In this document: positions 1,621-44,661 of the stretch, piece after piece
Layout of the letters: every line of letters starts with the position of its first letter
Numbering within the stretch: the stretch's first letter is position 1
Assembly (NCBI GenBank): GCA_045640185.1
Contig: JAZUEN010000020.1
Coordinates: 114,681 to 178,680 of the forward strand
Origin: Bacteroidales bacterium
Lineage (GTDB): Bacteria > Bacteroidota > Bacteroidia > Bacteroidales > SZUA-534
Direction of reading: 5' to 3'
Length of the DNA stretch: 64,000 nucleotides
Position numbers and translations under genes: made by a program
Notes under the pieces: generated by a model
What the model was told of the DNA's origin: nothing
Database searches by the model: none
What the model saw: only the letters and a program-made list of their open reading frames with translations

Positions 1621-1685
1621 CATGATGCCGAACATTGGCCACTGCCGGAAACAATCTGCCTGACAAATTTCCAAAAACGCCACAA
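1581..1685 (-). repeat. Diverged copy D of the intergenic repeat family (see findings)
   Basis: The exact 16-mer CAATCTGCCTGACAAA (1652-1667) is the reverse complement of 20190-20205. There is flanking similarity and a GC hairpin plus T-run at the equivalent end. Confidence 0.45.
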
Positions 1686-1830
1686 GACAATTTATATAAA
1701 TCCACTATGAAACAGCCGATTATAAGGCAAATGACGGCAACAGGCTTAATTTTCGGTTTTCATTTGAAATAGTTGCGTCAAAAATCCGTATCATTGCAAA
1801 ATTTTTTTTATTCCGAAAAACGTATCAAAA

Positions 1831-4300: not shown

Positions 4301-4304
4301 TCTT

Positions 4305-4365
4305 GTTTCTAGTTACTGGTTACTAGTTTCTAGTTACTAGTTTCTGGTTGCAGGTTTCTTGTTTT
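4305..4365. repeat. Degenerate tandem repeats (GTTTCTAGTTACTrG units)
   Basis: GTTTCT recurs at 4305, 4326, 4340 and 4354. The 13-mer GTTTCTAGTTACT occurs twice (4305, 4326). Embedded ACTAG/CTAGT half-palindromes are present. Confidence 0.6.
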
Positions 4366-11083: not shown

Positions 11084-11091
11084 TATCTTTG
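11084..11091 (+). promoter_or_regulatory. Bacteroidota -7 promoter box (TATCTTTG) for the LytTR gene
   Basis: It matches TAnnTTTG and lies 17 nt upstream of the ATG at 11108. Confidence 0.5.
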
Positions 11092-11107
11092 CGTGAACGA
11101 AAAAGAC

Positions 11108-14581: not shown

Positions 14582-14589
14582 TATCTTTG
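14582..14589 (+). promoter_or_regulatory. Bacteroidota -7 promoter box (TATCTTTG)
   Basis: It matches TAnnTTTG and lies 25 nt upstream of the ATG at 14614. Confidence 0.5.
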
Positions 14590-14613
14590 CAGAAACAAAA
14601 AAACATCAGCCGT

Positions 14614-18563: not shown

Positions 18564-19667
18564 CTATACAATTGCGTACACCTTGCCTGGTAGGCTCCTA
18601 ACCACACCGTTCAGTTCCATAGCCAGCAGCAATGCTGATACGCGCGCCATGGTCATGCCCACATTTCGGCAAATGACGTCAATTGGCAATTCCGTGTCCT
18701 TCAGCGCGTCATATATCTTTTGGCTGTCAGCATCAAGCTCGACAAACAGCTGTTTCTGTATGACCTTAGGCTGGCTATCCCAACCCAAAAAGTATTCTAT
18801 GTCGGCAAACGACTCAATTAGATGAGCCTGATTGTTCTTTATCAGGTTGTTGCAGCCTGCCGAATATTTGTCGTTTATGCGGCCGGGCTGTGCAAACACG
18901 TCGCGGTTGTACGAATTGGCCAGCTCTGCCGTGATGAGGGCACCGCCCTTCACATCCGACTCCACTACAAGTGTGGCATCGCTCAGACCCGCTATTATTC
19001 GGTTTCTTCTGACAAAATTATTCTTGTCGGGGAATATTTTCGGAAAGAATTCGGTTACCAAAGCGCCGTTCTTTACCATTTCCGTAGCCACATCGCGGTG
19101 CTGAGGCGGGTAAATGGTGTCCAAGCCATGCGCCAAAACGCCAATTGTGGGTACGCCCAGCTCAACCGACGCCTTATGCGCCGCAATGTCGATCCCGTAG
19201 GCCAAACCACTGACTATGCACACATCTGACTGCTTGTCACGTATGTCCTCCACCAGCTCGCGACAAAATGCCTGGCCCCGTGGTGTGGCATTTCTGGTTC
19301 CCACCACTGCAAGATATTTGCGTTTGGGTTCTATCGGCTGGCCTTTGACAAACAGCACTAACGGGCTGTCTTCACATACCTTCAGCCGTTCTGGATACTC
19401 CTTGTCAAACCATGTGTATATGTTGATGTTGTACTTTTGGGCAAACTCAAGCATCTCGTCCGCCTTGCGGTAATAGTCCTCGCCGGCTATGGAGCTGGCA
19501 AGGCTATCGCCGACACCAGGAATCCGCATCAATTCTTCCTTCCTCTTGCTGAAAAGTTCAGGAACGGAACCGGCATAGGAAACCAGACGGCGCGACAACA
19601 TGCTTCCAACTCCAGGGACCGCCCAGAGTGCAAGGCAATCTCTTAAAACAGGTATTTCCTGACTCAT
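18564..19667 (-). CDS. dprA: DNA-processing protein DprA (Smf)
   Basis: Rossmann-like core VVGTRNATPRG......SGLAYGIDIAAHKASVELGVPTIGVLAHGLDTIYPPQHR and a C-terminal winged-helix-like tail. Confidence 0.9.
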   Translation of the reverse strand: MSQEIPVLRDCLALWAVPGVGSMLSRRLVSYAGSVPELFSKRKEELMRIPGVGDSLASSIAGEDYYRKADEMLEFAQKYNINIYTWFDKEYPERLKVCEDSPLVLFVKGQPIEPKRKYLAVVGTRNATPRGQAFCRELVEDIRDKQSDVCIVSGLAYGIDIAAHKASVELGVPTIGVLAHGLDTIYPPQHRDVATEMVKNGALVTEFFPKIFPDKNNFVRRNRIIAGLSDATLVVESDVKGGALITAELANSYNRDVFAQPGRINDKYSAGCNNLIKNNQAHLIESFADIEYFLGWDSQPKVIQKQLFVELDADSQKIYDALKDTELPIDVICRNVGMTMARVSALLLAMELNGVVRSLPGKVYAIV

Positions 19668-20131
19668 TATTTTTTGCGTTTTACTGTCTCCAGAATGGCA
19701 AACGAACGCTTTACCTTGTCAATTTGCTCATCGGCCAGTAAATTTATGCAAACATCTGGATATTTTGCCTTCCCGCCCACCGTGTTTTTATACAGCACCA
19801 AATTGGTGCGGAACGTAGTCTTCGTTATTTCGTACCCGGCAAAGTCTTCGGTATTTATTTCAATGGAATTGTTTTCGGTAACTATCGGCCACAAGGCCTT
19901 ATATCTTACAACAACCTTGTCCGGGCCGATAAAAATCAGCACATAGTTGTTATGAAGCACGATGGCGACAGCTACATACACGGCCAACGCGGCAATGCCG
20001 ACACCAGCCAAAAGCAGGCTGCGGGTCAAGCCTATCAAATAAAACGACGCCACCACCAACACTATTAGCGCCGGTATGAATGCGTATGCCATACGTACTT
20101 GTGAAGCTTTGTTTGCGTTATCTATTTTCAT
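19667..20131 (-). CDS. Small membrane protein (two TM helices plus a bPH-like soluble domain), unknown function
   Basis: 154 aa with two hydrophobic helices followed by a beta-rich domain. Its stop overlaps the dprA start (TAATG junction). Confidence 0.5.
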   Translation of the reverse strand: MKIDNANKASQVRMAYAFIPALIVLVVASFYLIGLTRSLLLAGVGIAALAVYVAVAIVLHNNYVLIFIGPDKVVVRYKALWPIVTENNSIEINTEDFAGYEITKTTFRTNLVLYKNTVGGKAKYPDVCINLLADEQIDKVKRSFAILETVKRKK

Positions 20132-20173
20132 GTCGAGCCGTTTGGTTTAAGGGGTGTTCAATAAATTGCTTTA

Positions 20174-20418
20174 TAGTGATTTTGAAGATTTTGTCAGGCA
20201 GATTGATTGGTTGAACGAAGGAGCAGTGCGGACACTGTAACTGAGTGCATTCTTTCGAAAATTGAGTGCAATGTCGAACTTGTTCGAACATTGCCGAACC
20301 CAAGAAAGGGATGCGAAGCAAATCGAGCAAGATGACGGCGAAAATTCAAAGGCACACAAAAGATTGAAGAATGACCCATATTTAAAAAAATAAAATCGGG
20401 GGATTTTCAGAAGCCCCC
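20174..20418 (+). repeat. Intergenic repeat family, copy A (longest, with a 78-bp central insertion)
   Basis: It shares long blocks with 21881-22027 and with the reverse complement of 31612-31778. The terminal hairpin GGGGG-N11-CCCCC is at 20398-20418. No ORF is conserved. Confidence 0.8.
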
Positions 20419-20508
20419 TTAATCTAAACTGACATAGCTAAATGCATAAAGCGTGCCAAACTTGGCGACTCCATCAAAGGAAACCGGCTGTTGGTCAAAG
20501 ATCATGGC

Positions 20509-21789
20509 CTAATATCCATAGCGTTTCTGCCACCACTGACGAAGGCGCGCTCGTATTCCTTCCTCCTGCGCATTGGGTTGCGGGTCGTAGAATTTCCTGC
20601 CCTTGAGCTCTTTTGGCAAGAAATCCTGATCGACAAAATGCCCTTCGTAATCGTGCGAATACTTATACTCGGCGCCATAGCCCATTTTTTCCATGAGTTT
20701 GGTCGGAGCATTGCGCAAATGCAATGGAACCGGCAAGCCACCCGTGCCTCTCACAGTTGCAAGTGCATCATTTATGGCCATATATCCCGAATTGCTCTTG
20801 GGGCTTGACGCCAGATATATGGCACATTCCGAAAGAATTATGCGCGACTCGGGCATGCCAATCTTATTGACGGCCTCGAAACACGTATTGGCCAAAAGCA
20901 ATGCATTTGGATTTGCAAGACCGATGTCCTCCGATGCCGAAATGAGCAGCCTGCGCGCTATGAACTTTATGTCCTCGCCACCATCAAGCATACGCGCGAG
21001 CCAATATACGGCCCCGTTAGGGTCACTGCCACGTATCGACTTTATGAATGCCGATATTATGTCATAGTGCATCTCGCCGTTCTTGTCGTAAATTGACAGA
21101 TTCTCCTGAAGGATGTCCTCAACTATCTTATTATTGATGACAATTGGCGACTTGCCCTCTTGTGCTCCAATCACTATATCGATGATATTTAGCAACTTGC
21201 GCGCATCACCGCCCGAAAATCGGAACATGGCCTCTTTCTCCTCGACCTTTATGTCGAGTTGTTTCAAGTCATAGTCGCAAGTTAGCGCACGGTTCATCAG
21301 TTCATCGAGATCGGCAGGCTCAAGCGAACGCAATACATACACTTGGCATCGCGACAGCAATGGCGATATCACCTCAAACGACGGGTTCTCGGTTGTGGCG
21401 CCGATTAGCGTCACCACGCCTTGCTCAACAGCTCCCAACAGCGAGTCTTGCTGCGCCTTGCTGAACCGGTGGATTTCATCGATGAAAAGAATTGGATTTG
21501 GCTGGTTGAAAAACTGCTGACGCTTGGCCAAGTCAATGGTGTCGCGCACATCCTTCACACCCGAACTGATAGCGCTCAACGAGTAGAACGCGCGGTTCTG
21601 CAAGTTGCTGATGATGTTTGCCAACGTAGTCTTGCCGACACCCGGAGGCCCCCAAAGTATCATGCTCGGAATACGCCCCGACTCTATGGCCTGACGCAAA
21701 ATGGCACCCTTCCCGACCAAATGCTTCTGACCGATATATTCATCTAAGTTCTTGGGACGCAAGCGTTCCGCTAATGGCATGTTTGGCAT
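20509..21789 (-). CDS. rarA: Replication-associated recombination protein A (RarA/MgsA AAA+ ATPase)
   Basis: LAERLRPKNLDEYIGQKHL, Walker A GPPGVGKTTLA, Walker [10 protein letters not shown], and C-terminal MgsA-type blocks (GAVYWLARML.GGED..FIARRL). The start is set at ATG 21789. The 59-aa extension in the ORF track reads through repeat copy B. Confidence 0.9.
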   Translation of the reverse strand: MPNMPLAERLRPKNLDEYIGQKHLVGKGAILRQAIESGRIPSMILWGPPGVGKTTLANIISNLQNRAFYSLSAISSGVKDVRDTIDLAKRQQFFNQPNPILFIDEIHRFSKAQQDSLLGAVEQGVVTLIGATTENPSFEVISPLLSRCQVYVLRSLEPADLDELMNRALTCDYDLKQLDIKVEEKEAMFRFSGGDARKLLNIIDIVIGAQEGKSPIVINNKIVEDILQENLSIYDKNGEMHYDIISAFIKSIRGSDPNGAVYWLARMLDGGEDIKFIARRLLISASEDIGLANPNALLLANTCFEAVNKIGMPESRIILSECAIYLASSPKSNSGYMAINDALATVRGTGGLPVPLHLRNAPTKLMEKMGYGAEYKYSHDYEGHFVDQDFLPKELKGRKFYDPQPNAQEEGIRARLRQWWQKRYGY

Positions 21790-21880
21790 ATTGTCAGTTT
21801 TGAAACAGTCGCTAATATAGCAAATAGGAACGAATGGAATGTCAACAAAAGAAGAATGACGATGCCTCAAAAAAAACATA

Positions 21881-22027
21881 GGTGAATTGACTGAGCAAAG
21901 AAGCAGTGCGGACACTGCGGCTGAGTAGAGGTCAGCTAGATGCCGACAAAATCCAAAGGCACACAAAAGATTGAAGAATAGGCTCTATTTGAGAATTTTA
22001 ATAATCGGGGATTTTACAGAAGTCCCC
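21881..22027 (+). repeat. Intergenic repeat family, copy B (5'-truncated)
   Basis: The 26-mer CAAAGGCACACAAAAGATTGAAGAAT is identical to copy A, and GCAGTGCGGACACTG is shared. The terminal hairpin GGGG-N13-CCCC is at 22007-22027. Confidence 0.8.
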
Positions 22028-22035
22028 TATATTTG
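22028..22035 (+). promoter_or_regulatory. Bacteroidota -7 promoter box (TATATTTG)
   Basis: It matches TAnnTTTG, lies directly after the copy-B hairpin, and is 19 nt upstream of the ATG at 22054. Confidence 0.5.
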
Positions 22036-22053
22036 CATAAACAAAAAAAGGAC

Positions 22054-22752
22054 ATGTTTGGACTACCTACAAGCCTTCAACAATCGGACGACACCGAGCT
22101 GAAGGAAATAATGAAAGAAACCATAATGTTCCAAAACGGCACAACCGCAAGCCAAATGGCCAAATCGGGAGTGCACGGGAACATGAATTATGGCGTATCG
22201 GTCACCGACATTCAGCGCATATCCGCCAAATACGGGAAGAACCACCAACTGGCCCAGAGGCTATGCCGGCTAAACATTCGTGAGGCAAAATTGCTCGCTT
22301 CTAGGCTATTTGTCGCATCCATGCTGACTGACAGCGACTTGCAAAACATCTTCGACTCAATTGCAAATATTGATTTGGCAGAGAACCTTGCGCGAAACAT
22401 TATTTGCGAAATAGACGACATCAAATTCATCGAGCAGCTAGCCAATGGCAATGTGTGGCAGACGGTATCGGCAATTCTCGCCATTGACTGGGCCATAATC
22501 AAAAAAATGCCTCACTCGAACCGTCTTGCCACTTGGTTCATTGAGCATCTCCAAAATCTGGCAGAAAAGGAACTGCCCGAAACCCGGCGACCAATACTTA
22601 TCGCCATGGAAGACTTTGCCAAATTGCCAAACGGATACGGCCCCCGGATTGCCGACTGCGCAAAACGGATGGCATCTTCTTCTTCCGATTTTTGCAAGGA
22701 AATTGGCGAACGGCACCTATGGATGCTGAACACTGACAATAATTCAATATAA
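22054..22752 (+). CDS. DNA alkylation repair protein-like (AlkD-type HEAT-repeat) protein
   Basis: All-helical repeats. The block ...MNYGVSVTDIQRISAKYGKNHQLAQRLCRLNIREAKLLASRL... resembles the DNA_alkylation family. This is called by eye only. Confidence 0.5.
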   Translation: MFGLPTSLQQSDDTELKEIMKETIMFQNGTTASQMAKSGVHGNMNYGVSVTDIQRISAKYGKNHQLAQRLCRLNIREAKLLASRLFVASMLTDSDLQNIFDSIANIDLAENLARNIICEIDDIKFIEQLANGNVWQTVSAILAIDWAIIKKMPHSNRLATWFIEHLQNLAEKELPETRRPILIAMEDFAKLPNGYGPRIADCAKRMASSSSDFCKEIGERHLWMLNTDNNSI

Positions 22753-31524: not shown

Positions 31525-31611
31525 CAAAAGTCTTTTTTCGGAATAAAATACAAACGCTATTATATGGCAATTGTTGCCAAGATGCAAGAGTGCCATGCCA
31601 AAAAAAATAAA

Positions 31612-31778
31612 GGGGGTAACCTATAAATTCCCCCGATTAATGATTTTTTTCAGAAGAGCCTATTCTGCAATCTTTTGCGGGCTTAAAATTTTGCCGTCAT
31701 CTTGCTCGGTCGCAATGTCCGTACAGCTACTTCGTCCAAGCCATCAGTCTGCCTGATAAAAAATCTTCAAAATCACTA
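31612..31778 (-). repeat. Intergenic repeat family, copy C (inverted orientation, compact core)
   Basis: Its reverse complement aligns end-to-end with copy A except for the 78-bp insertion. The hairpin GGGGG (31612-31616) / CCCCC (31630-31634) is flanked by an A-run and a T-run. Confidence 0.8.
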
Positions 31779-31841
31779 CATGGCGATTAATAGAAGTTCA
31801 TTAAACAACGGCCACCTTTTTTCGAGGTGGCCGCCGTTTGC

Positions 31842-32802: not shown

Positions 32803-33085
32803 TTACCTTAAAATTGTAACGGGTCCTGTAGTCTTCTTTCCACCTAGCACATCATCGCTACACTGGATGACGTAGTAATATGTGCCTGACGGAACCGGTT
32901 TGTCCTTTTCGTTTCTGCCATCCCATTGGTTTGCCGAGTAGTCGCGGCCACTTCCTGAGTACTGCCATACACGGCCACCCCAACGGTTGAATACATAGAT
33001 TGTAACTTTATCGTAAGATGACAAACCTTCAATTCTCCAGATATCGTTATGCCCATCGGCGTTAGGAGTGAACACCTCTGCCGGC
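32803..33085 (-). other. T9SS type-B (gliding-motility-associated) C-terminal sorting domain of the giant adhesin
   Basis: The last roughly 93 aa are EVFTPNADGHNDIWRIEGLSSYDKVTIYVFNRWGGRVWQYSG....ANQWDGRNEKDKPVPSGTYYYVIQ. Confidence 0.8.
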
Positions 33086-36000
33086 CTTATGCCGTTAAGA
33101 GAGTTGAGTCTGACGCTATCGTAGTAGTAGCATACCAATGTGGTATCGATGCTATATACGTTGAATGCCACGCTGTCGCGAACCTTAATCATCAGGTTGC
33201 CGTAAGGCTGTACTGCGATTGGATTGTCATTGAGTGTGCTCTCTGGCTTGATGCCTGCATTTGACGATTTGTCGTCAACTGGAGCGGCACCCCAAGTCCA
33301 ACCATTTTCAACATATATTGTCTCATTGAAATCAAATTCCAAATCATTGGCGTCAAGCTGTATCCTTGCGCCTTCAGCCACTTCGTAAACTCCATCTATC
33401 AGCAAGTCGCCAGGCCCTGCATCATCCATGGAGATGGTAGCCCTCAACTTGTAAACAGGGTTCATTGCAGTTGCCTTGATAGAATCGATATCCATACAAA
33501 TTCCATCTTTAGCCATGAAGTAGTAGTATGTTTCTGTTCCGTATGGCAAGAAGTTGTCAACCCAGCCTTTTTGTCCAGCACTTACGTTGTCACCCTCGCC
33601 AAACACTACATAAACTACGCCTCCAACTGTATCGAGCTTGTATTTAGGCGTTTCAACAACAGGGACAATCACTGTCGTGTCAACGCTGGCGGAATCGCCA
33701 GATATCGAATCGGCCGCATAGCGTATAGTCCTGAACCTGTTGATGTAAGCTAATGTCGAATCGGCAAATGTCGAATCAATGACAGTAGTGTCGGCAGGAG
33801 CAGGAGCTGTATCTACCGGTGAAACTATTGGCAATTCGGCTGGTTCTGCATTTTCGTCGTAAGCGGCATAGAACCTATAGCTGAATGGGGTGCTTGCTGT
33901 TACAAAAGCCGACAGCTCATTGTCAGGACAAGTGTAAACTGAAGTCTGGTTGTTGCCATTCATGTAGAATGCCGCTTCAGTGATACTAAAGTTGCTCTTG
34001 CTTGCAACTGTAGCTGTAAACTCTTGTGGACAAACCATGTCCTCGCCATAACCGACAGTTACTGTATATGTACCTGCCTCCAATCCCTTAAATACACCGG
34101 AATTATTAGGCTTCGATTCGCCGATTTTGTACCACAAATCATCAAGAGTTGTAGACTCCGAAGATGTAGAAAGAACTGTTTCCGATACTTGAGAGAATAC
34201 AAACGGATTAATCATGGCTTCCAGTATTATACCTCCATCAAGTGCCAACGTTCCATCTGCCTTCATGTTCAAGCAAGATGCATCAACAATTGAATCGCTA
34301 ACGGCAAAGCTTGGATAACGTGAACCTACAACAATATCAATAGGATCACTTTGGCAACCACCGTTATTCTCTTCAACTATGACTGAATACTTGCCCGAAG
34401 CAATGCCACTCAATGTTATTGGTGAAGCCTTGCCTTTAATGTCGAATATGCTGTCACCTACAAGGCAACTCTCAATATCTCTGCCTCCACATATAGAATC
34501 CAATGTTATAGTTGCTTCATTAGATGCCGAGCACATTGCACTTACAATATCTGTTATTTCAAATGTTATTTTATCTGGTTGAGTTACAACGAAAGTATCC
34601 ATCCTGACGCATGACGAGTCATCGACTACCTTGACAGAATATGTTCCGGCTTGCAACCCTGATATGCTGTTTGTCGAATCCCCAGTGCTCCACAAATACT
34701 TGAAATTAGTGCCATTCTTGCTTGTTGGACTCAAAGCAATTCCACCTTCTGGAACCTCAAAGCACCTCAAATCTGTAACCCCTGCATTTAAGACGAAATT
34801 CGAATTGTCAGGTATGCTGAAAATGCTATCCTGAACACACCCCTTATCATCTACAATGCGTAATTTATAGTTGCCAACTCCAATTCCTGATAGAGTGACA
34901 CCATTGTCAGAGTTCTTCACGGAGTCGGCAGTCCAAGATTCATTAGAGAAATTATATGTGAATGGCGCTTTGCCACCAATAGTTTTCAGGATTCGGATTG
35001 ATCCATTTGCAACATGGCAGTCTGAACCATCTGTAACAAACATTGTAGATATTCTATCTGATGGCTGTTCAACAAACAACGAATCAGTTATGCTTGCCCT
35101 TCCTTGGCGTTGCGATATGGTAAACACATACCATCCACCTTGAAGGTTTTCGATAGAGGCTGTCGTTGCTACAAAATCAGCAGGCCAATTGGCACTTGTC
35201 CACTTATATTGATAACCTTCGTAGTAGCCACCGACACCAACCACCTCAAGTGCGCCATTATTGCCACCGAAGCAAATGTTAGGCACGTTTTTGACAACTT
35301 GATATAGCAAAGGACGATGTTCAACGGCAATTGTCGTATCTACAGAGCAACCTGACAGATTTTCGTCTTCAATATGCAATGTATAGTAGCCTTCACAAAG
35401 CTTATTTATGGAAGTGGTTGTTTCTGTGTCATCACTCTCGATAGCGTTGCCATAGACATCACTCCATGCATATGAATAGTTGCCGATTCCGCCTGCAACC
35501 GAGACTACAAGCTCACCGTTGCAATTTGAATCTCCTCCATTTAGGTCAGGATAGTTTGCTACATTAGCGACACGCAATGCAAGCTCGTCAGTAATTACAA
35601 CTTCTTTAACCTTGCGACAACCATCCTGGTTTATTACAGTTACTGTATTTGTACCCAAGCACAAGCTGTTGGTGAAGCGACCATTATCGTTAGGATCGTT
35701 ATTCCAAATGAATTGCAAATTCGAGTCGTCGTCGTAAACATTGCCCGCGTCATCAAAGACATAACCTATGGTTGCCGAACCGGTGCAATAAGAAGCGCAT
35801 GGCACTGGAATAATATTCTTGATTTGGAAATCAAGTGTGCCATTATCATTAATCTCAATAGTATCGGCCACCGAGCATCCAAGTGCATCGATTATTTCCA
35901 ACCGATATATGTCGACACCCAAGTTGCTTGGATTAGCTTCATATGACACAATGTCATCACCAGTAAGTGTGCGCCAATAGTATGAATACTGCCCTACACC

Positions 36001-39000
36001 ACCTTCGACTGTTACTGATGCAGTACCCGTAGCGTCACCACAATCAGACTCGGTAGTTTTGACTTCTACAATCTTCAATGTGTCAGGGTTGACAATTGTC
36101 ACAGTGTCGAATGCTGAACATCCGTTTGCATCGACCACCATAACGTTGTATATGCCCTCGCCAACATTGGAAACGATAGAATCGTTTGAAACTACATAGC
36201 CTTCGCTATACCAAGTATAGACTAAGCTTCCTGAACCTCCGGTTGCCGTAGCATAGAATGATGCTTCAGTGTCACCAGCGCACCGGATTGGTTTGCTGAA
36301 TACTATAGATGGAACAATTGCGTCAGGCTGTTCAATTGTAAATGTCTCTGCTATCTGGCAATTTGATGTCAGGTCGGTAACGGTTACGGAATAATCGCCA
36401 GCCTGCAAGTTTGTTGCCGTGCTTTCGGTAGCTCCATTTGACCAAGCAAATGCGTAGTTGCCTGAACCACCATTTACTGCAAGAGCGACGCTACCTGAAT
36501 TGTCGTTATAGCATTCAAGGTTGTTTACCGTAGCTGTTACGTCCAAGTTAGATTCATCAACCATGGTAACATCATATGCTTCACTCTCGCATTCATTGCG
36601 ATCGACAATGACAGCCTTGTAGTTGCCGGCACCTACTTCTTCGAATGGGTTGTCCATACTTATATATACCAATGTTGAACTTACAGACTCAAACCACATA
36701 ACATCGTATGGCGCATTGCCTCCCTTAATATTAACAGCCTCTAACACACCAGTGTTGACTGAACACCCAGAAGGTGTCATAATGAAATCTGCAGTGATAG
36801 GCGCAGGTTCGCCAACTGTTCCACTAATTGTAGATTCGCAACCATTAGCATCGTAAACGGTAACCGTATATGTTCCTGCAGCAAGACCTGTGGCCTTTGC
36901 ATCCGTGCTTCCGTCGTGAGCCCATGAATAAGTGTATGGCGCAACACCGCCACAATCGGTAAGGTCAGGTTCCAAAGTGCCATCGGCTGAACCAGGGCAC
37001 TTGGCATCCACTGGAATCATTCTCTTAACCTCGAACTTGTCGACACCACCCACAATGGCGGTCTCATTGATAGCGCAATTGTGCTCGTCTTCCACCTTGA
37101 CATAGTATGTACCCTTTGGCAAATTAGTCGGGTCTTCGGCAGTTGATACTTCCTCGCCTGCTTCGTTTGTCCAATAGAATGATGGCGTCCCGTAAGCGCC
37201 TGTCACTGTAATGTCGATTGCACCATCGAAATTGCATCCGTTGGTGACATTTGTTATGCCATCGACACTGACAGCCAATTCAGAATCGTTGTTGACAGTA
37301 ATTGTATCATAAGCCTCACACATATTGGCGTCAGTTACAATCACGCTATATACGCCCTCTGTCAATCCACTAACGGTAGCGGTTGTTGCACCATTGCTCC
37401 ACAAGTATGAATATGGCTCAACACCGCCGCTTACTGTCAATTCTATTGAGCCGTCGGATCCACCGCAAGATGCTTTTGTTACATCATCTGTAACCACCAG
37501 TTTTTGTGGTTCATCAAGAACAAGGCTATAGTCGGATGCCTGACATCCGTTGGCATCAACAACTAACAGACCATAAGAACCGGCCTTAAGGTTTTCAGCA
37601 GAAGACTCCTCTGAAATAACGATGTTTTCTGCATCGACCCAAGAATAAGTGAAGTCTGCCATGCCACCCTCAACAACTACTGATAATGATCCGTTGTCGC
37701 CACCATTGCAAAGGATATCTTTTTTAGTTATGGTAAGAACCATTCCTGCTGGCTTGGTTGATACCAATGTATCGATTGAACATCCATTGGCGTCTTCAAT
37801 ATGGACCATATAGTCATCAGATGCAAGACCGGTAGCTGCTCCGTCAACAAATAAAGCAGTCGGGCAAGTAACATAATAAGGCTCAACACCGCCACTCAAC
37901 GCGAATGTTATAGAACCATCTACACCGGTACAGCTTGATATTGTAACATCGATATTGTCAATATTCAAAGCAGATGCGGGTTGAGAGATCTCAACTGTAT
38001 CCATAGACCAGCATGAATTTTCGTCTGTTACTTTTACGATATATGTGCCAGCAACCAAATTATCAATATCCTTTGTATTTAAAGTATCTACTTCATTCCA
38101 TTCATAACTGTATTCACCAACACCTTGTGTAGCAACAACTGATGCAGAACCATCGTTGCCACCGTAGCACATTACGTCGGTACCAGTAGCGTTAAGCACG
38201 ATTGGATCTGGAGAAAGGACTGTTATTGAACCTGACGCTGTGCAACCATAACTATCAGTAACGGTTACTGTGAAATCGCCGGCGCAAAGGTCAACAGTAT
38301 CTGTTCCCATTATTGAAGGATCGCTCCAAACGAATGAGTTAAACTCGCCTGAACCACCAATAACATTGACAACGGCGCGTGCATCACAAGTGCCGTAGCA
38401 ACTTGTGCGCAAACCCATAGGAACTATATAACGTGTTTCTCTGTGTGCCAAAATAGGATTACTTATTGTCTTCGAGTCAAACATTATTGTCTGCATTACG
38501 CCCTGACGGTTAATGTCGGTAAATGATATTGTCGCTCTTGTAAGAGTACCTACCGCATCGCCAAATACACTCTTTGCCACAACAGACCATCCGCCCTCAG
38601 CAGGATCCTTGCCATATATGTTTGTCCATTTAGCGGCATCAGTAATGTCAAATGTCCCTGTATAAGGTGCGGTCAAGGCTCTTAAGTCAAGTGCGGTTTC
38701 CGATTCGGTGGAGAATTTCAAGCCATCCATCGTCTTGTTTCTCATTACCGGACTAGCTGAGCCAGCAATGTCTTCACGATGGTTATACAGTTTCACCTCA
38801 GTTCCGTCTGGAGATACCAGATAAAAACCTACATAACCAAAATGTTCGTGAGTTAGCCACAATGAGACTTCAATCTTTGTGGATTCAGAAATAAGGAATG
38901 GAGTGATACTGCCTATTGCAACGCCCATTTCCGGATTGATTGTCAATACAACATCGTCGAATGCCGAACCGCAAGACATGCTTTGGGCTTCCATCGTAAG

Positions 39001-42000
39001 AGTTGCTGTTCCATTTGTAAGGTCATTAGCACCCGGAGTGTATGTAGGATTCAGTGCGTATTTGTCGTCAAATTCACCATCACCACTCGTGCTCCAAACT
39101 ATCGAGCTGTAGTTTTCTGCAGTTGCATCGGCCAATGTGTAATCAGAAGCATAGCAGACTACAGCATCGGCACCGGCAAATGCGCTTGGTCCCTGAATGT
39201 TTTCCACTGTTATGTCTTTAGTTGCTACACAGCCATTAGCATCGGTAACTGTATAAGTAAAGCTGTAAGTTCCTGCAATTGTACTTTCAAAAATCGGGTC
39301 GATGACATCGGTAGCCGAAAGGTTTGCAACGTCGCCTGTCCATGCATGAACATAAGGTGTCGCACCGCTTGTTACATTGCCGTAAAGCACGACGTTGCTG
39401 TTAGTGCAGCTGTTCATGTCGGCCAAGCCGATATTTGGCAAAGTGTTCACCATTACTACGTAGTCAGTAGCAGTGGCGGCCGAGCAACCATTGTCATTGG
39501 CATAGCTTACGCTGATGGTTTGGCTTCCTGCTGAAGTCCACTCAACAGTTACTGATGCAGTTTCTTCGCCACTGATAATGTTACCACCAGCTATTGTCCA
39601 CATGTAGCCTGTCATTCCAGTTTCAGTAGTGTAAGTCTGAACTGAATTCAAGCATACAGAATTTTCACCAGCTACAGTTGGAACTGGCAATGGGTTGATT
39701 GTTATTGTTTTAGTGCTAGTGACAGGAGTTGTGCAAGGTGCATTTGGATAGGCCGTCAAAGTAAGAGTCACACTGCCTGCCGCAATGTCTGCACTTCCAA
39801 TATTGTAAGTCGGGTTAAGTACACTTGCATCTGCAAAAGAACCATTCCCGTTTGATGTCCAAAGCAACGATGAATAGTTGACCGCACTAGCGTCATCAAC
39901 TGTATATGATGCCTGATCGGCGCAAATCGCGTCAGTGGCACCAGCGTCAACTATAGGCTCCTCAACAAATGTAATAGAAGCCTCGGCGTAATCATTGCAA
40001 CTGCCAGATTTTTCGGTCAAACGGACTGTGTAAGTGCCACCAGCCGTAGCTATAATGTCAGTGGTTGGTTTGTCTGGGTCAGAGAATGTGACAGCGTCGT
40101 TGCTGCTCCAATGCATTTCTGAACCCGAAACAGTTTGTACGGCAGTTGCATTGTATGTGAGTCCGCAAGCAGTTGCATCTGCAATTGCTGGTGCAGGAGT
40201 ACCATTAACTGTTAGCACCATCGACTTGGCACCATTTGTATTGCAACCTCCAACAGGAGTTGCCGTCAGAGTAACATTATATGGAGTTGTCTGATTAACT
40301 GAAGTATAGGTAACTGTAGAAGTTGTTCCAGCCAAACTTGCAGTTCCAAGAGAACCGAGAGAACCCGACATTGACCATGATACATTGGTGCAATGTGCAA
40401 TATCGGCGCTAATAGTGTAAGAATCGCCAGCACAAATTTCATCAGCCAACGAACTTAGCGTAATGGAAGGCTCTGCATTGAACTTTATGTCAATTGTTGT
40501 TGAACCTTCGCAACCATTTGCAACTTCAATGAGTTTAAATGAATAGACACCCTCTTGAGGTACAGTCACATTTGTGTGGCTTCCAGTTTTTGGGCTTATA
40601 GTTGCAGTACTTGGACCGCCAATCTGTTCCCAACTCAATGTGCCACCATACGATGCATTTCCAGTCAATGCATTTGTGAATCCGCATACATCGGCACCTC
40701 CTGCCGAGATGATTTCAGGAACAGGAGTTGGAGTAATAGTGAGCACCATTTCATCTGTTGCGTCACCACAATATTGATGATGAGTAGTTACTATAAGAGT
40801 TACAGTTCCTGCAGCAATTTCTGTTGCACTAGGAACATAAACTGGCTGTTCCATGGAATTCGTATAGAACGAGCCAGAGCCTGTAGATGATACCCAAGTG
40901 GTCGGATTTACTGCAATTGGTTCATCATTATGAATAGACGCATCAGACAAGATATATTCGCCATCACTTGCACAGATAGTTGCATCTGCACCTGCAAAAG
41001 CAGATGGAACTTCATAGAAAATCATCGTCTTCTCCGTATAATTTGAACAACCATTGAATTCTTCAGTGAAACGTATTGTATATGAGCCTTTGGCTGTTAC
41101 AATGATATTTGTGTTTGCATCGTTTGCATTGCTGAACGATGCGCTACCACCTGTTGGAGTACTTACTACCGACCAAGTACGAGTAGAACCAGCAAGAACA
41201 TTGCTTGCCGATATTGACTGAGTAAATCCGCAATTGGTTTCATCTGCAACTATTCCAGGATTTGGAGTACGCGTTACGGTGAGTAACATTTCATCAACTA
41301 CAGCGCCACAAACTGGCGAAGATGGAGTGCCTGTCACCAAAATCTTATAATCCTTTGAATCAATGCCATCTGGCAATACTGGAGTGAATTTCACATTTGC
41401 GCCAGTTGATGGAACAAATGTTCCTTCCCCCATTGACACTGCCCATGAAATTGCCTTGCAGTTATTTGCAGTAGCCTTTAGCTGATATGGATCGGCACTG
41501 CAAGTGACATCATTTTCTATTCCAAGTTCAATGCTTGGGGCTTCATTGAATGTTATTGCCACAAACGCGGGTAATGCGTTGGTGCAACCATTGCTGGTTT
41601 CTACCAATTGGAAAGCATAACTGCCTGCCTGGTTCACCTCAACTTTTACGGAAGTCTGAGTCAGTTCACTGAATGTCGCGTTCCCTGGACCTGTTTTCTT
41701 GCTAAAGAATAGGTCAGAACCTAATAACGCATTATCAATGGTAATTGTAGTTTCGAGTCCGCAAACCGATGAAAGCGCGCTCAACGATGGATTTGGAACT
41801 TGACTTACCGTAAGATTATATGTGTCGGATGGATGTTCGCTTGCACAAGCTCCGCTTCCGTGTGCTGTAGCTGTAAGGACTATTGTTTTGCCCTGGTCGC
41901 TTGGTGCAGGAGTATATGTTGTAGATGTGCCTGTTGCAGGGCTAAATGTACCATTGCCACCTGTCCACGTAATGTCAACAACATTGCTGGATGCAGTCAG

Positions 42001-44661
42001 ACTTATTTTTTCACTACCACATATTGTCTTGTCAGCGGTAATAATGTCGATTGTCGGCTCATCGTAGAAATCCAGTGTCAAATCACCAGACTCTGTTGAA
42101 CAACCAGCACCTGTTGTCTCTATAAAATAGAACTTGTATTCACCTGCTTGAGTTGCTGTGACATCGGTTGTTGCCGAAGTTGCATCTGCAAATGTAGCAG
42201 AACCACCACTGCGGGTGTACCATTTAATTGTATTGCCAGTTGCCACATTTGCGCTAATGGCTTTAGTCATGCCACAAACATCGCCGTCAGCTGTTACCAA
42301 AACTGGAGTTGGTGCGGCGTCGACTGTTACGTTCAGTGTCTTAACGTCTGGCGAGCATACTCCATTTCCGTTTGCAGTCAATGTTATTACTGCCGTGCCA
42401 GAGAATCCTGCATTTGGCGTGAATGTAGGAGCTAACGAAGTTGCGTTGCCCAATGTGCCATTTGTGCAGCTCCATGCGAAAGAACTGTAATATTCAACAT
42501 TTCCTGATAAATTAAGAGTTGCATTGTTGCATAAAGTAGTGGCACCTGTGTTTATTGTAGCCACCGGACTATGATATAGCGATACATTCACATTCGAGCT
42601 GTAACCTTCACATCCGTTGGCATTGGTTTCCTTTACTCTAAAGGTGTATGTTCCATCGGCATATACAGTGACATTAGAGCCTGAAAAATCAGCTCTACCT
42701 GGTCCGCTTACAAGCTCCCAAACCATTGTTCCGTCTTGCGATGCTGTTGCCTCAAGGGTTGTTGACCAGCCACAAACTTTACTGTTATCGGCTGTAGTTA
42801 CAGTTGGAGCAGGTGTGGTATAGAATGTCAATACCATTTCATCATCAACCGGATCGCAACCCGCAAGTCCTTCAGCAGTGAGTTTCAATGTTACGAAACC
42901 TTGTGTACGGTCAGCGCTAGATGGATTATATGTTGCATTCAGCGCGTTGCCGTTGGAGAAGGTTCCTGTACCGTCTGTTGTAGTCCATTCTACTGATTGA
43001 TAATTGCTGGCCGAACCATTTAATGTATATGAAATTTCAGTTTCGCACATTCCGCCATCAGCTCCTGCGTTTGCAACAGGCGCCGGATTAACCTCGATTG
43101 TCTCCGTATTTGCTATGGAAGGGCATCCCTTGCTGTCTTTTACGACAACTGTATAATAGCCCTCAGGCAAATTTTCTATGACATTTGTTTCACTGTTGTA
43201 TTGAATACCCGAAGTTGTATGTGTTGCAATATATGATGTATATATGCCAGTGCCACCTGTAGGAGTTACTGTGATTACGCCACTTGCCTCACCTTCGCAA
43301 GTCTCTGTCGATGCAAGCGTTGTGGTAATTTGTTCAAATGGGTAAACGTAATTAGAGTATTCTGGGAACTCGGACCAGTACTGAAATTCTATGGAGTTTT
43401 TACATCCATTTGCATCAGTTGCATAAATATCGACTTGTGAACCATCAATGAGATTTTCAAGATAGTCATCAGTGCCAAGTTCACCTTGCTCATACTCATC
43501 CCAAAAATAAGTATACGGACCAGTACCGCCAGTGGCACTTGCCTGCATTTTCTTTATAGGCTCACCAAAGCAATCCGGTTCATCTACTACTATAGCCTCA
43601 ACTTTAATAGGACCAGGCTCCAACACTGTTATTTCCTTTACGTCGCTTAATTGCGATGGCTTTCCATTAGGGCACCAAGCAACTCTATACTTACCTGCTG
43701 TACGGTTTCCTATTGTGTATGTTTTCTGTGAAGGAGCGATGCCTTGGCCGACTGGATTGGCAATTAGGTTCATGCCGTCTTGCCTGTACAGATATACATC
43801 GTAATATTCCGTCATGCCAGAAAAAGTTATTATGATTTCACCGTCATCATGAGTACCGCTGTCATTGGTATTACAAGAGACAGGTTCTTGACTTACAACG
43901 AAATCTGGACTCTCTCCAACCTTGCTTGCCGAGCGACCTTGCCTGATTACATCACCCAACTTGACATTTCCGTATATCGACAAATTGCCAGAGACTCCGT
44001 CCAGCATTGTCAGATCGGCATTGCTGGCATCGACTATTGATGCGCTGTTGTTCAGCAGTGTCTGCCATTTATCGTTGACATCAATTTTCGAGGTGCCGAA
44101 ATCAACCTCGACAACATTGTCACTATTGCTTATCAAATTCTCGCAAGCGATTGAGTTGCCGTTTGACTTGAAAGTTCCGTTATTGATTGTCAAGTTGCCA
44201 GTTGTGGTCAAATCCGACAACAATGTCCAATTGCCACCATCAATAATAATGTCGGCATCGAGTGGCGCCGCAAGGTTTATCGTCTGGTCGCCATCGGTAG
44301 CCAGAACCAAATCGCCACGCAACTTGCCGAAATCGACATTGGCATCGACGTTGACTGAGCCTGCAACCGTTATGTCCTTTTTGCCAGACACCGTGAATGT
44401 GGCATCCTGCGCATCAAGGCTATTGACATACGCCGGCTGGTTAACTTTGACCGTATTCTGACTGTCACTGAACGAATTTTGGTCGAACACGACATTAGTG
44501 TTCTGGTCTGGGACAGTTGCACCTGGAGTGCCACCTGACACTGTTGACCAGTGACTTTGGTCGGACCAATTGCCGCTACCATTCACCCAAAATCTCGACT
44601 CTTGACCAAATAGCTGTGATACAGCTAACAAAATCGATAAGGTTAAAATTTGTCTCTTCAT
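32803..44661 (-). CDS. Giant (3,952 aa) SprB-like cell-surface adhesin, T9SS type-B cargo
   Basis: Signal peptide MKRQILTLSILLAVSQLFGQ. It has about 20 SprB-type repeats (C.GG.(D/N)GS......GG..PY.Y.W ... V.D.NGC) and the C-terminal type-B sorting domain VFTPNADGHNDIWRIEGL...VTIYVFNRWGGRVW......WDGR.....PVPSGTYYYVI. A single uninterrupted ORF. Confidence 0.9.
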   Translation of the reverse strand: MKRQILTLSILLAVSQLFGQESRFWVNGSGNWSDQSHWSTVSGGTPGATVPDQNTNVVFDQNSFSDSQNTVKVNQPAYVNSLDAQDATFTVSGKKDITVAGSVNVDANVDFGKLRGDLVLATDGDQTINLAAPLDADIIIDGGNWTLLSDLTTTGNLTINNGTFKSNGNSIACENLISNSDNVVEVDFGTSKIDVNDKWQTLLNNSASIVDASNADLTMLDGVSGNLSIYGNVKLGDVIRQGRSASKVGESPDFVVSQEPVSCNTNDSGTHDDGEIIITFSGMTEYYDVYLYRQDGMNLIANPVGQGIAPSQKTYTIGNRTAGKYRVAWCPNGKPSQLSDVKEITVLEPGPIKVEAIVVDEPDCFGEPIKKMQASATGGTGPYTYFWDEYEQGELGTDDYLENLIDGSQVDIYATDANGCKNSIEFQYWSEFPEYSNYVYPFEQITTTLASTETCEGEASGVITVTPTGGTGIYTSYIATHTTSGIQYNSETNVIENLPEGYYTVVVKDSKGCPSIANTETIEVNPAPVANAGADGGMCETEISYTLNGSASNYQSVEWTTTDGTGTFSNGNALNATYNPSSADRTQGFVTLKLTAEGLAGCDPVDDEMVLTFYTTPAPTVTTADNSKVCGWSTTLEATASQDGTMVWELVSGPGRADFSGSNVTVYADGTYTFRVKETNANGCEGYSSNVNVSLYHSPVATINTGATTLCNNATLNLSGNVEYYSSFAWSCTNGTLGNATSLAPTFTPNAGFSGTAVITLTANGNGVCSPDVKTLNVTVDAAPTPVLVTADGDVCGMTKAISANVATGNTIKWYTRSGGSATFADATSATTDVTATQAGEYKFYFIETTGAGCSTESGDLTLDFYDEPTIDIITADKTICGSEKISLTASSNVVDITWTGGNGTFSPATGTSTTYTPAPSDQGKTIVLTATAHGSGACASEHPSDTYNLTVSQVPNPSLSALSSVCGLETTITIDNALLGSDLFFSKKTGPGNATFSELTQTSVKVEVNQAGSYAFQLVETSNGCTNALPAFVAITFNEAPSIELGIENDVTCSADPYQLKATANNCKAISWAVSMGEGTFVPSTGANVKFTPVLPDGIDSKDYKILVTGTPSSPVCGAVVDEMLLTVTRTPNPGIVADETNCGFTQSISASNVLAGSTRTWSVVSTPTGGSASFSNANDANTNIIVTAKGSYTIRFTEEFNGCSNYTEKTMIFYEVPSAFAGADATICASDGEYILSDASIHNDEPIAVNPTTWVSSTGSGSFYTNSMEQPVYVPSATEIAAGTVTLIVTTHHQYCGDATDEMVLTITPTPVPEIISAGGADVCGFTNALTGNASYGGTLSWEQIGGPSTATISPKTGSHTNVTVPQEGVYSFKLIEVANGCEGSTTIDIKFNAEPSITLSSLADEICAGDSYTISADIAHCTNVSWSMSGSLGSLGTASLAGTTSTVTYTSVNQTTPYNVTLTATPVGGCNTNGAKSMVLTVNGTPAPAIADATACGLTYNATAVQTVSGSEMHWSSNDAVTFSDPDKPTTDIIATAGGTYTVRLTEKSGSCNDYAEASITFVEEPIVDAGATDAICADQASYTVDDASAVNYSSLLWTSNGNGSFADASVLNPTYNIGSADIAAGSVTLTLTAYPNAPCTTPVTSTKTITINPLPVPTVAGENSVCLNSVQTYTTETGMTGYMWTIAGGNIISGEETASVTVEWTSAGSQTISVSYANDNGCSAATATDYVVMVNTLPNIGLADMNSCTNSNVVLYGNVTSGATPYVHAWTGDVANLSATDVIDPIFESTIAGTYSFTYTVTDANGCVATKDITVENIQGPSAFAGADAVVCYASDYTLADATAENYSSIVWSTSGDGEFDDKYALNPTYTPGANDLTNGTATLTMEAQSMSCGSAFDDVVLTINPEMGVAIGSITPFLISESTKIEVSLWLTHEHFGYVGFYLVSPDGTEVKLYNHREDIAGSASPVMRNKTMDGLKFSTESETALDLRALTAPYTGTFDITDAAKWTNIYGKDPAEGGWSVVAKSVFGDAVGTLTRATISFTDINRQGVMQTIMFDSKTISNPILAHRETRYIVPMGLRTSCYGTCDARAVVNVIGGSGEFNSFVWSDPSIMGTDTVDLCAGDFTVTVTDSYGCTASGSITVLSPDPIVLNATGTDVMCYGGNDGSASVVATQGVGEYSYEWNEVDTLNTKDIDNLVAGTYIVKVTDENSCWSMDTVEISQPASALNIDNIDVTISSCTGVDGSITFALSGGVEPYYVTCPTALFVDGAATGLASDDYMVHIEDANGCSIDTLVSTKPAGMVLTITKKDILCNGGDNGSLSVVVEGGMADFTYSWVDAENIVISEESSAENLKAGSYGLLVVDANGCQASDYSLVLDEPQKLVVTDDVTKASCGGSDGSIELTVSGGVEPYSYLWSNGATTATVSGLTEGVYSVIVTDANMCEAYDTITVNNDSELAVSVDGITNVTNGCNFDGAIDITVTGAYGTPSFYWTNEAGEEVSTAEDPTNLPKGTYYVKVEDEHNCAINETAIVGGVDKFEVKRMIPVDAKCPGSADGTLEPDLTDCGGVAPYTYSWAHDGSTDAKATGLAAGTYTVTVYDANGCESTISGTVGEPAPITADFIMTPSGCSVNTGVLEAVNIKGGNAPYDVMWFESVSSTLVYISMDNPFEEVGAGNYKAVIVDRNECESEAYDVTMVDESNLDVTATVNNLECYNDNSGSVALAVNGGSGNYAFAWSNGATESTATNLQAGDYSVTVTDLTSNCQIAETFTIEQPDAIVPSIVFSKPIRCAGDTEASFYATATGGSGSLVYTWYSEGYVVSNDSIVSNVGEGIYNVMVVDANGCSAFDTVTIVNPDTLKIVEVKTTESDCGDATGTASVTVEGGVGQYSYYWRTLTGDDIVSYEANPSNLGVDIYRLEIIDALGCSVADTIEINDNGTLDFQIKNIIPVPCASYCTGSATIGYVFDDAGNVYDDDSNLQFIWNNDPNDNGRFTNSLCLGTNTVTVINQDGCRKVKEVVITDELALRVANVANYPDLNGGDSNCNGELVVSVAGGIGNYSYAWSDVYGNAIESDDTETTTSINKLCEGYYTLHIEDENLSGCSVDTTIAVEHRPLLYQVVKNVPNICFGGNNGALEVVGVGGYYEGYQYKWTSANWPADFVATTASIENLQGGWYVFTISQRQGRASITDSLFVEQPSDRISTMFVTDGSDCHVANGSIRILKTIGGKAPFTYNFSNESWTADSVKNSDNGVTLSGIGVGNYKLRIVDDKGCVQDSIFSIPDNSNFVLNAGVTDLRCFEVPEGGIALSPTSKNGTNFKYLWSTGDSTNSISGLQAGTYSVKVVDDSSCVRMDTFVVTQPDKITFEITDIVSAMCSASNEATITLDSICGGRDIESCLVGDSIFDIKGKASPITLSGIASGKYSVIVEENNGGCQSDPIDIVVGSRYPSFAVSDSIVDASCLNMKADGTLALDGGIILEAMINPFVFSQVSETVLSTSSESTTLDDLWYKIGESKPNNSGVFKGLEAGTYTVTVGYGEDMVCPQEFTATVASKSNFSITEAAFYMNGNNQTSVYTCPDNELSAFVTASTPFSYRFYAAYDENAEPAELPIVSPVDTAPAPADTTVIDSTFADSTLAYINRFRTIRYAADSISGDSASVDTTVIVPVVETPKYKLDTVGGVVYVVFGEGDNVSAGQKGWVDNFLPYGTETYYYFMAKDGICMDIDSIKATAMNPVYKLRATISMDDAGPGDLLIDGVYEVAEGARIQLDANDLEFDFNETIYVENGWTWGAAPVDDKSSNAGIKPESTLNDNPIAVQPYGNLMIKVRDSVAFNVYSIDTTLVCYYYDSVRLNSLNGIRPAEVFTPNADGHNDIWRIEGLSSYDKVTIYVFNRWGGRVWQYSGSGRDYSANQWDGRNEKDKPVPSGTYYYVIQCSDDVLGGKKTTGPVTILR
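34250..38405 (-). repeat. Array of about 18 SprB-type repeats (protein-level tandem repeats)
   Basis: Each recurrent unit of about 75-85 aa starts with a Cys-Gly-rich strand (CYGGNDGSASV, CNGGDNGSLSV, CGGSDGSIEL and others) and ends with V.D.NGC. Two further units lie near the N-terminus (about 43100-43600). Confidence 0.75.
38515..38885 (-). other. Proprotein-convertase P-domain-like module embedded in the adhesin
   Basis: KIEVSLWLTHEHFGYVGFYLVSPDGTEVKLYNH...KWTNIYGKDPAEGGWSVVAKSVFGDAVGTLTRATISF follows the P-domain pattern (H.y.gDL...L.SP.GT...L ... G..p.G.W.L.v.D......G.L..w.L.F). Confidence 0.55.
38925..43090 (-). repeat. Strictly alternating two-module (type I / type II) Ig-like array, about 7-8 dyads
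   Basis: Type I is A(G)AD..IC....Y.L...A.NYSS..W...G.G.F......LNPTY.P...D...G.VTLTLTA.....C.....D...LTI.P.P. Type II is ......VCG....L.A.......W....GPG.A.FS.........V......G.Y.F...E....GC........V.F...P. The two types alternate without exception over roughly 1,380 aa. Confidence 0.7.

Follow-up and report, generated by a model that had tools for sequence, protein, structure and literature searches.

A short intergenic repeat in a Bacteroidales bacterium is very probably a non-autonomous miniature transposable element family of IS5 type

The stretch of DNA analyzed here, hereafter the window, comprises 64,000 nucleotides of a Bacteroidales bacterium (GenBank assembly GCA_045640185.1, contig JAZUEN010000020.1, positions 114,681 to 178,680). 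In ENA, the same sequence belongs to contig k141_1057584 of ERZ27247192, which has 480,521 bp. In this window, rarA lies between orf154-dprA, where orf154 encodes a 154-aa protein, and a DNA-alkylation-repair-like gene; further along, a porP/sprF gene adjoins a giant SprB-like gene. The spacers on either side of rarA (copies A and B) and one next to porP/sprF (copy C) hold look-alike sequence. The initial annotation, made from the letters alone, had described blocks shared by these three spacers as an unrecognised repeat and had offered a small RNA (sRNA) gene family, a mobile or ex-mobile miniature element, or a reusable terminator/promoter cassette as explanations. We conclude that the repeat is very probably a non-coding, multi-copy family of non-autonomous miniature inverted-repeat transposable elements (MITEs) of IS5 type, because it has inverted repeats of 17 nt at its ends, duplicates 4 bp of target DNA, occurs in internally deleted forms and has empty counterparts at orthologous positions in related species. 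The family is apparently undescribed; it belongs to an ordinary and well-known kind of genome parasite. Its copies and their parts in the window are the following.

20147 to 20150: left target-site duplication of copy A, TTAA, identical to the right one
20151 to 20418, plus strand: copy A, an intact long-form MITE of 268 nt (nhmmer match, both inverted repeats, flanking TTAA duplication)
20151 to 20167, plus strand: 5' terminal inverted repeat of copy A, GGGGTGTTCAATAAATT, matching the consensus GGGGAGTTCTATAAATT at 15 of 17 positions
20247 to 20328, plus strand: internal palindromic module of the long form, about 80 nt, not in the 190-nt copies, folding as a hairpin of its own
20402 to 20418, minus strand: 3' terminal inverted repeat of copy A, reading inward GGGGGCTTCTGAAAATC, pairing with CGGGGG at 20397 to 20402
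20419 to 20422: right target-site duplication of copy A, TTAA, identical to the left one
21881 to 22027, plus strand: copy B, a 5'-truncated MITE of 147 nt (model positions 51 to 198)
31612 to 31801, minus strand: copy C, a decayed short-form MITE of 190 nt whose 5' inverted repeat has degenerated to ATGAACTTCTATTAATC
1649 to 1705, minus strand: fragment D, 5' module only (GTGGATTTATATAAATTG...GTCAGGCAGATTG; E=9.4e-06, model positions 3 to 58)

A three-way alignment and profile matches bore out the shared blocks. With a profile hidden Markov model built from the copies, nhmmer recovered A at E=1.4e-54, C at 3.5e-42 and B at 5.2e-35, and no match of comparable strength was found in the rest of the 64 kb. 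The previously proposed 3' ends (20418, 22027 and 31612) were exact, and the 5' ends of A and C had been placed 23 nt short, so that the part missed holds the 5' terminal inverted repeat. Indeed, the consensus of 14 aligned copies is about 190 nt long and begins with GGGGAGTTCTATAAATT and ends with AATTTATAGAAGTCCCC, which together form 17-nt terminal inverted repeats. These ends (GGGGAGTTCTATAAATT / GGGGACTTCTATAAATT) were found on 10 complete copies, and at up to three mismatches the 17-mer has 3 matches in the window compared to 0.09 expected by chance. Complete copies measure 86 to 268 nt, most commonly about 190 nt, the 268-nt form being the long one; MITEs in general span about 50 to 1000 bp and encode no transposase. 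Copy B lacks the 5' inverted repeat and roughly the first 50 nt and keeps its 3' inverted repeat at 22011-22027. The 80-nt module of copy A is also present in a second, decayed long-form copy on the same contig (L062 7750-7999). We had considered this insert as a nested foreign element and rejected the idea, since the module recurs in a second family copy and was found elsewhere in none of the DNA searched. In fragment D, the inverted-repeat match has 3 mismatches; it lies 126 nt upstream of guaB and is divergent from it. Just beyond it on the minus strand (1706-1790) lies TTGCCGTCATTTGCC, which is similar to the MITE block AAGATGACGGCAAAA when the latter is reverse-complemented; this may be a second, inverted MITE remnant that the profile search did not detect.

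The element is non-coding. As the initial annotation had stated, no reading frame is conserved: 59 of 60 frame-by-copy combinations, from ten copies, contain a stop, and the sole stop-free one is frame r1 of a 139-nt deletion derivative (L009b). Likewise, its suspicion that the first 59 aa of the open reading frame (ORF) 20509-21966 are spurious is upheld by the gene call on the source contig, in which RarA has 426 aa. Rfam gave no match at the gathering score over the whole window and none at E values up to 1 over 20100-22100 and three loci of metagenome-assembled genomes (MAGs); the initial annotation, too, had recognised the repeat neither as a known RNA family nor as a REP or MITE. In the full-text literature, we found no paper describing a MITE with ends of the IS1168/IS1169 type. 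Thus, "unrecognised" holds for Rfam and for the MITE papers searched, but the kind of element is recognisable as an IS5-type MITE.

The family extends beyond the three loci. On the same contig, two further members lie about 0.2 to 0.6 kb before the window start, within the 510-nt spacer between a ksgA-like gene (RrnaAD domain) and a cation-efflux gene: a 5' fragment with an intact end (L062 7546-7600) and the decayed long form mentioned above. The source contig therefore carries 6 copies or fragments in about 72 kb. A scan of one genome per species with the pattern CAAAAGATTGNAGAATN{15,30}AATCGGGG returned 11 loci, of which nine lie on separate contigs of MAG CALCFP01 (uncultured Bacteroidetes, SRR6425797_bin.19) and one in a Paludibacteraceae MAG of horse-faecal origin, where the copy is a mini form of 86 nt. 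The remaining locus, in a "Treponema" MAG (L004), was a chance match. A profile search of these loci added ten further full or partial copies. MAG CALCFP01 holds at least 10 copies. A metagenome scan with a pattern for the 3' module gave a single match (L031), discarded as chance and lacking an inverted repeat. Pairwise identity among copies ranges from 52 to 94%. Copy A is 88 to 89% identical to MAG copies and just 73 to 75% identical to B or C. Internally deleted forms of 139 nt (L009b) and 86 nt (L010) occur, as do truncated copies (copy B and L008), and the two deletion derivatives together with the truncated copy B fit the decay of a MITE. The insertions are intergenic and often sit within or beside promoters.

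A perfect 4-bp AT-rich duplication flanks 10 of the 11 complete copies from the window, MAG CALCFP01 and the Paludibacteraceae MAG, and the last one matches at 3 of 4 positions. At control offsets, a 4-mer match occurred in only 5 of 1584 cases (0.3%; binomial P ~1e-24). In element orientation, the duplications read as follows.

Copy A: TTAA
Copy C: TTTA
L001: TAAA
L003: TAAA
L005: TTGA
L006: TTAA
L007: ATAA
L009b: TTAC
L010: TATA
L011: TATA
L009a, an old copy: flanks TTTG and TTTA, 3/4 match

For copy C, the duplication is seen in the window as TAAA at 31608-31611 and 31802-31805.

Empty sites were found by comparison between species. Two contigs of related species, reached via homologues of the 154-aa protein beside copy A, served for this (L061 and L041). 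Once copy A and one TTAA are removed, the window aligns without gaps both to the rarA-orf154 spacer of L061 and to the region upstream of orf156 in L041. In L061, the last 191 aa of RarA show 92% identity and orf154 shows 76%; the two genes are 147 nt apart, with no MITE between them. A blastn comparison of the MAG loci with the window in search of empty sites aligned the MITEs alone. In Logan, the contigs from 8 samples all stop roughly 54 nt into copy A, as is typical of a repeat in the genome.

Full-length elements with MITE-like ends were recovered by an inverted-repeat scan of viral contigs. One of them (L015) is a 1.32-kb element between TTAA duplications with the ends GGGGACTTCTATAAATT and GGTGGGTTCTATCAATT. 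Its 355-aa ORF matches Pfam DUF772 and DDE_Tnp_1 as well as the NCBIfam model NF033581 "IS5 family transposase", at 314 bits (cut-off 140), and is 99.4% identical to a transposase annotated on a Bacteroides plasmid as "IS5-like element IS1168 family transposase". Relatives with 78% identity to it are annotated IS1169, one of them directly upstream of nimD. Four more full elements (L026, L052, L053 and L054) have ends 0 to 3 mismatches from the MITE consensus; three of them carry 4-bp duplications (TTTA, TTTA and ATAA), and L054 does not (TAAA/TTCA). Overall, the 4-bp duplications of the full IS5-family elements are TTAA, ATTA, TTTA, TTTA and ATAA, and the elements with MITE-like ends score 269 to 314 bits with NF033581, against the same cut-off. 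The MITE ends agree with those of IS1168, IS1169 and two more distant IS5-family elements at 13 to 17 of 17 positions: the left end of IS1168 equals the MITE 3' end GGGGACTTCTATAAATT at 17/17, and that of IS1169 matches the MITE 5' end at 16/17. The hallmarks of the IS5 group in ISfinder are a 4-bp target duplication, ends that begin with GG/GA and a DDE_Tnp_1 transposase. The MITE shows 4-bp duplications and ends beginning with GGGG, and its relatives encode DUF772 plus DDE_Tnp_1. To judge from these sequences, it is a MITE of IS5 type.

Two further observations were made on the viral contigs. In L015 (9000-9270), two copies of the IS1168 left end follow each other at a distance of 138 nt and the joint contains an N, which suggests a misassembly at a repeat. 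Additionally, three other viral contigs (L014, L020 and L025) end within about 60 nt of an IS1168 left end.

We propose that an IS1168/IS1169-like DDE transposase, supplied in trans, would bind both ends of the MITE, excise the element and join it to target DNA opened with a 4-bp stagger. On this view, the element carries its terminal G-C hairpin, its A/T runs and its long fold-back along as structural baggage, and if copies acted as terminators or leaders for rarA, orf154-dprA or the alkylation-repair gene, this would follow from where they happened to land and not be the purpose of the family. Copies A and C are carried by all populations sampled, copy C by 7 of 7 assemblies with the neighbouring porP/sprF gene, and we thus judge the window copies to be old and probably immobile by now.

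Several results weigh against this interpretation. Beyond the 17-nt ends, the similarity of the MITE to IS1168 or IS1169 is no better than that of shuffles, and the family may share only its ends with this group. We therefore regard IS1168 and IS1169 as relatives of the partner of the MITE and not as its demonstrated parents. Since subterminal similarity was not significant, we also dropped two ideas, namely that the conserved 26-mer is a remnant of the -7 box of the transposase gene and that left and right MITE ends can be firmly assigned. An autonomous partner was not detected: a tblastn search of the 64-kb window and 11 MAG loci gave no match to the IS1168 transposase, and two MITE-specific 21- to 22-mer patterns gave 0 matches in the viral contigs, where no parent was thus seen. 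Within species, no presence/absence polymorphism was seen, A and C being present in every assembly with the flanking genes. The empty sites come from other species, and they need not reflect current mobility. Finally, over 7 copies, paired positions of the fold-back have undergone 13 double-sided changes, compared to 3.3 +/- 1.6 in shuffled alignments and 1 to 5 with slid partners, which pure parasitism does not require.

This last point concerns the structure of the element. The whole element is an imperfect long palindrome in which the 5' arm pairs with the 3' arm around a central palindrome, and the latter exists in two unrelated sequence versions. The 5' arm holds three TTTTG motifs and the 3' arm three CAAAA motifs. 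At consensus positions 20-45 and 110-140, each arm thus has three TTTTG about 10 nt apart, reading inward; a transposase or host factor might bind them as subterminal sites, or they may simply be the halves of the palindrome. The DNA fold of the fold-back has z=-5.3, and over 7 copies 92% of cells pair, compared to about 47% with slid partners. Furthermore, in 12 of 12 copies the RNA of the forward strand folds more stably than that of the reverse strand. Thirteen copies have an ORF on their 3' side; the gene there runs in the direction of the element for 9 of the 13, and 6 of these end 15 to 27 nt before its ATG. Orientations are mixed overall and the bias is not statistically significant. 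The feature first described as a terminal hairpin is a real pairing, but it joins an internal CGGGG to the CCCC of the 3' inverted repeat. It comprises 5 G-C pairs and a loop of 11 to 13 nt (11 in copy A), at about -8 to -10 kcal/mol with z values of +0.6 to -1.3, no better than shuffles. In copy A it reaches -8.8 to -9.7 kcal/mol, likewise no better than shuffles.

These features could be taken to mean that selection maintains the hairpin of a structured RNA or sRNA family, or of a cis-acting RNA leader, and that the transposon-like ends are secondary. The stable fold, the compensated pairs, the strand bias and the position before start codons would all suit such an RNA. However, the structure was predicted from the same alignment on which it was scored, which makes the pairing result suggestive but weak; most double changes stem from one divergent copy (L009a, 52 to 62% identical) and from the swapped central palindrome, and the covariation term of RNAalifold is only -0.19 kcal/mol. 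Fold-back structure is common among MITEs that lack any RNA function. Neither strand of the consensus shows a TAnnTTTG box by eye, the terminal hairpin has no forward-strand T-run in A and B, Rfam gave no match, and truncated and internally deleted copies persist. The sRNA option of the initial annotation received no direct support, and we consider an RNA family very unlikely. In a related proposal, the element would be a domesticated terminator/promoter cassette whose hairpin and T-run end upstream transcripts such as that of rarA and whose interior restarts transcription. Some details are compatible with this: on the minus strand, GATTTTATTTTTTT comes directly after the hairpin of copy A, at a distance of 91 nt from the rarA stop; by eye, no other T-run hairpin is evident between that stop and the hairpin; L061 has 38 nt after rarA, including a small hairpin and a T-run, that the window lacks; and the hairpin of copy C has T-runs on both strands. 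As a terminator of rarA, the role that the initial annotation gave it, copy A is no more than plausible: there is a minus-strand T-run, but its predicted energy resembles that of shuffles (-8.8 kcal/mol, z=+0.6, the T-run starting only after GA) and the terminator scan left the rarA strand unflagged. For the family as a whole, the stem has only 5 G-C pairs around an 11- to 13-nt loop, the T-run of copy B is poor, the interior offers no -7 box, and copies occur in every orientation relative to their neighbours. Moreover, the target-site duplications show that transposition, and not design, set the position of each copy. The tests run did not support the cassette, which we hold to be unlikely. 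A further reading is that some MITE copies have been recruited as RNA or DNA modules acting in cis on the promoters of DNA-maintenance genes, namely rarA, orf154-dprA and the alkylation-repair-like gene. The double-sided changes between copies as little as 52 to 62% identical, the strand-biased stability, and the copies lying 15 to 27 nt before ATGs or at -7 boxes are compatible with it; we give it a small chance. If true, a structured 5' leader or a promoter-rewiring element would be under selection, in place of neutral parasitic decay.

Two other readings keep the repeat mobile. Copies A and B could be the arms of a composite transposon that brought rarA to this locus, given that they are direct repeats around rarA and that their outer ends (A 5' and B 3') face each other as inverted repeats. 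Additionally, L041 has no rarA at this position: there, the alkylation-repair-like gene and orf156-dprA (whose orf154 orthologue is 78% identical) are divergent direct neighbours, 204 nt apart (L041 1-800 compared with window 19667-22752). However, the outer 4-mers differ (TTAA versus TATA), copy A alone has a perfect TTAA/TTAA pair and hence inserted on its own, and in L061 rarA adjoins orf154 with no MITE at all, so that this adjacency predates copy A. On these three grounds we rejected the composite transposon as highly improbable. Since rarA is absent at this spot in L041 and adjoins orf154 in both the window and L061, the gene was gained or lost here among close relatives. The second reading is a palindromic repeat of the repetitive extragenic palindrome (REP) or bacterial interspersed mosaic element (BIME) type, moved by a REP-associated tyrosine (RAYT, Y1) transposase. 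Such repeats have a palindromic unit of about 20 to 40 nt and an associated RAYT transposase, and the window copies are likewise intergenic, palindromic and multi-copy. However, their unit is about 190 nt rather than the roughly 35 nt of a REP, and REPs are not known to have terminal inverted repeats or target-site duplications. The duplications and the 17-nt IS5-family ends refute this assignment, to which we attach next to no likelihood. Overall, among the explanations offered initially, the mobile or ex-mobile miniature element proved right, as the inverted repeats, duplications, derivatives and empty sites indicate.

In the window, copies of the MITE lie at or next to two probable promoters. 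In Bacteroidetes, the -7 promoter consensus is TAnnTTTG, and the sigma-70 promoter scan is inapplicable to this phylum. The two sites concerned are the following.

22028 to 22035, plus strand: TATATTTG, a perfect TAnnTTTG box abutting the 3' end of copy B
20440 to 20470, minus strand: CTTTGGCAyGCTTTrTGC block (L061, about 650 to 700; L041, about 700 to 750)

The first box lies 18 nt upstream of the ATG (22054) of the alkylation-repair-like gene. The junction CCCC|TATATTTG recurs at a MAG copy (L011), so that B and L011 sit exactly at the TATA of the box, and the orthologous promoter in L041, TTTG-N18-TATCTTTG, is uninterrupted. The second block is conserved upstream of orf154-dprA in three species, is followed by a TAnnTTTA-like box, and is probably the promoter or operator of this operon. 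Copy A separates it from the orf154 ATG by 272 nt. Its insertion point is just downstream of the block, which would place it between the likely promoter and the ATG.

Other repeats in the window were noted in passing. The sites of repeat family D8 (11084-11105, 14582-14603 and 22028-22049; TATCTTTGCAGAAACAAAAAAA and similar) are TAnnTTTG-like -7 boxes followed by A-rich leaders, and they look like ordinary promoters and not like a mobile repeat. A short tandem-like repeat, CTAGTTTCTAGTTAC..., spans 4302-4357 in three overlapping units. On the minus strand at 32803-44661, a 3952-aa ORF next to porP/sprF has SprB, PKD-like and CHU_C domain matches on its gene call and many internal direct repeats (D2, D5, D7 and D11), and it measures 3940 to 3950 aa across assemblies. 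Within it, a weak match to the MITE profile on the minus strand (33256-33403, E=0.009, model positions 48 to 132) is probably due to chance.

Four stretches of the window, and probably many more genome-wide, can thereby be assigned to a repeat class with a name. The annotation can be cleared of the false 59-aa RarA extension and of several spurious ORFs, and the MITE explains why short-read assemblies break at these spacers in this lineage. The family is also a plausible source of promoter rewiring, because it inserts at or beside -7 boxes. The understanding of how MITEs work is unchanged by it.

Among known systems, IS1168 and IS1169 are the nearest by their ends. IS1168 is very close to IS1186. 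All three are tabled under the IS5 family and activate nimA/B, nimD and cfiA (PMC9330008). This clinically relevant group, which switches on nim and cfiA resistance genes in Bacteroides, would gain a non-autonomous relative in uncultured Bacteroidales. Like the MITE, IS1168 and IS1169 have 4-bp AT-rich duplications and are found in Bacteroidales, and the left end of IS1168 has an internal CCCT able to pair with its terminal GGGG, as in the MITE hairpin. In contrast, they are 1314 to 1320 bp long, whereas the MITE has 86 to 268 nt and no transposase. Furthermore, IS1169 ends 8 nt before nimD with a TAAATTTG box near that end, while inspection of the MITE by eye revealed no outward promoter.

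Small fold-back MITEs that are co-transcribed with neighbour genes include the Correia elements of Neisseria, the pneumococcal RUP and the enterobacterial ERIC. These too have inverted repeats, intergenic positions and a long hairpin, and many of them lie in 5' or 3' untranslated regions, with possible effects on promoters, termination or the stability of transcripts. They differ from the window MITE in their ends and target sites (Correia elements duplicate TA). Closer in taxonomy are the Porphyromonas gingivalis MITEs BrickBuilt, MITE239, MITEPgRS/MITE464 and MITE700, which have ends in common with ISPg1, ISPg3, ISPg4 and ISPg9 (PMC4596501). They belong to the same order and are of the same kind, being short, non-coding and multi-copy with no transposase remnant, and their inverted repeats are identical to or within 1 nt of those of resident IS5-family elements (PMC4596501). 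Their ends (GAGACC..., ACGTCAGTTCGA) are unrelated to those of the window MITE, which places them with a different IS5 subgroup. BrickBuilt additionally contains an internal minisatellite and has variable or absent duplications, whereas those of the window MITE are a regular 4 bp.

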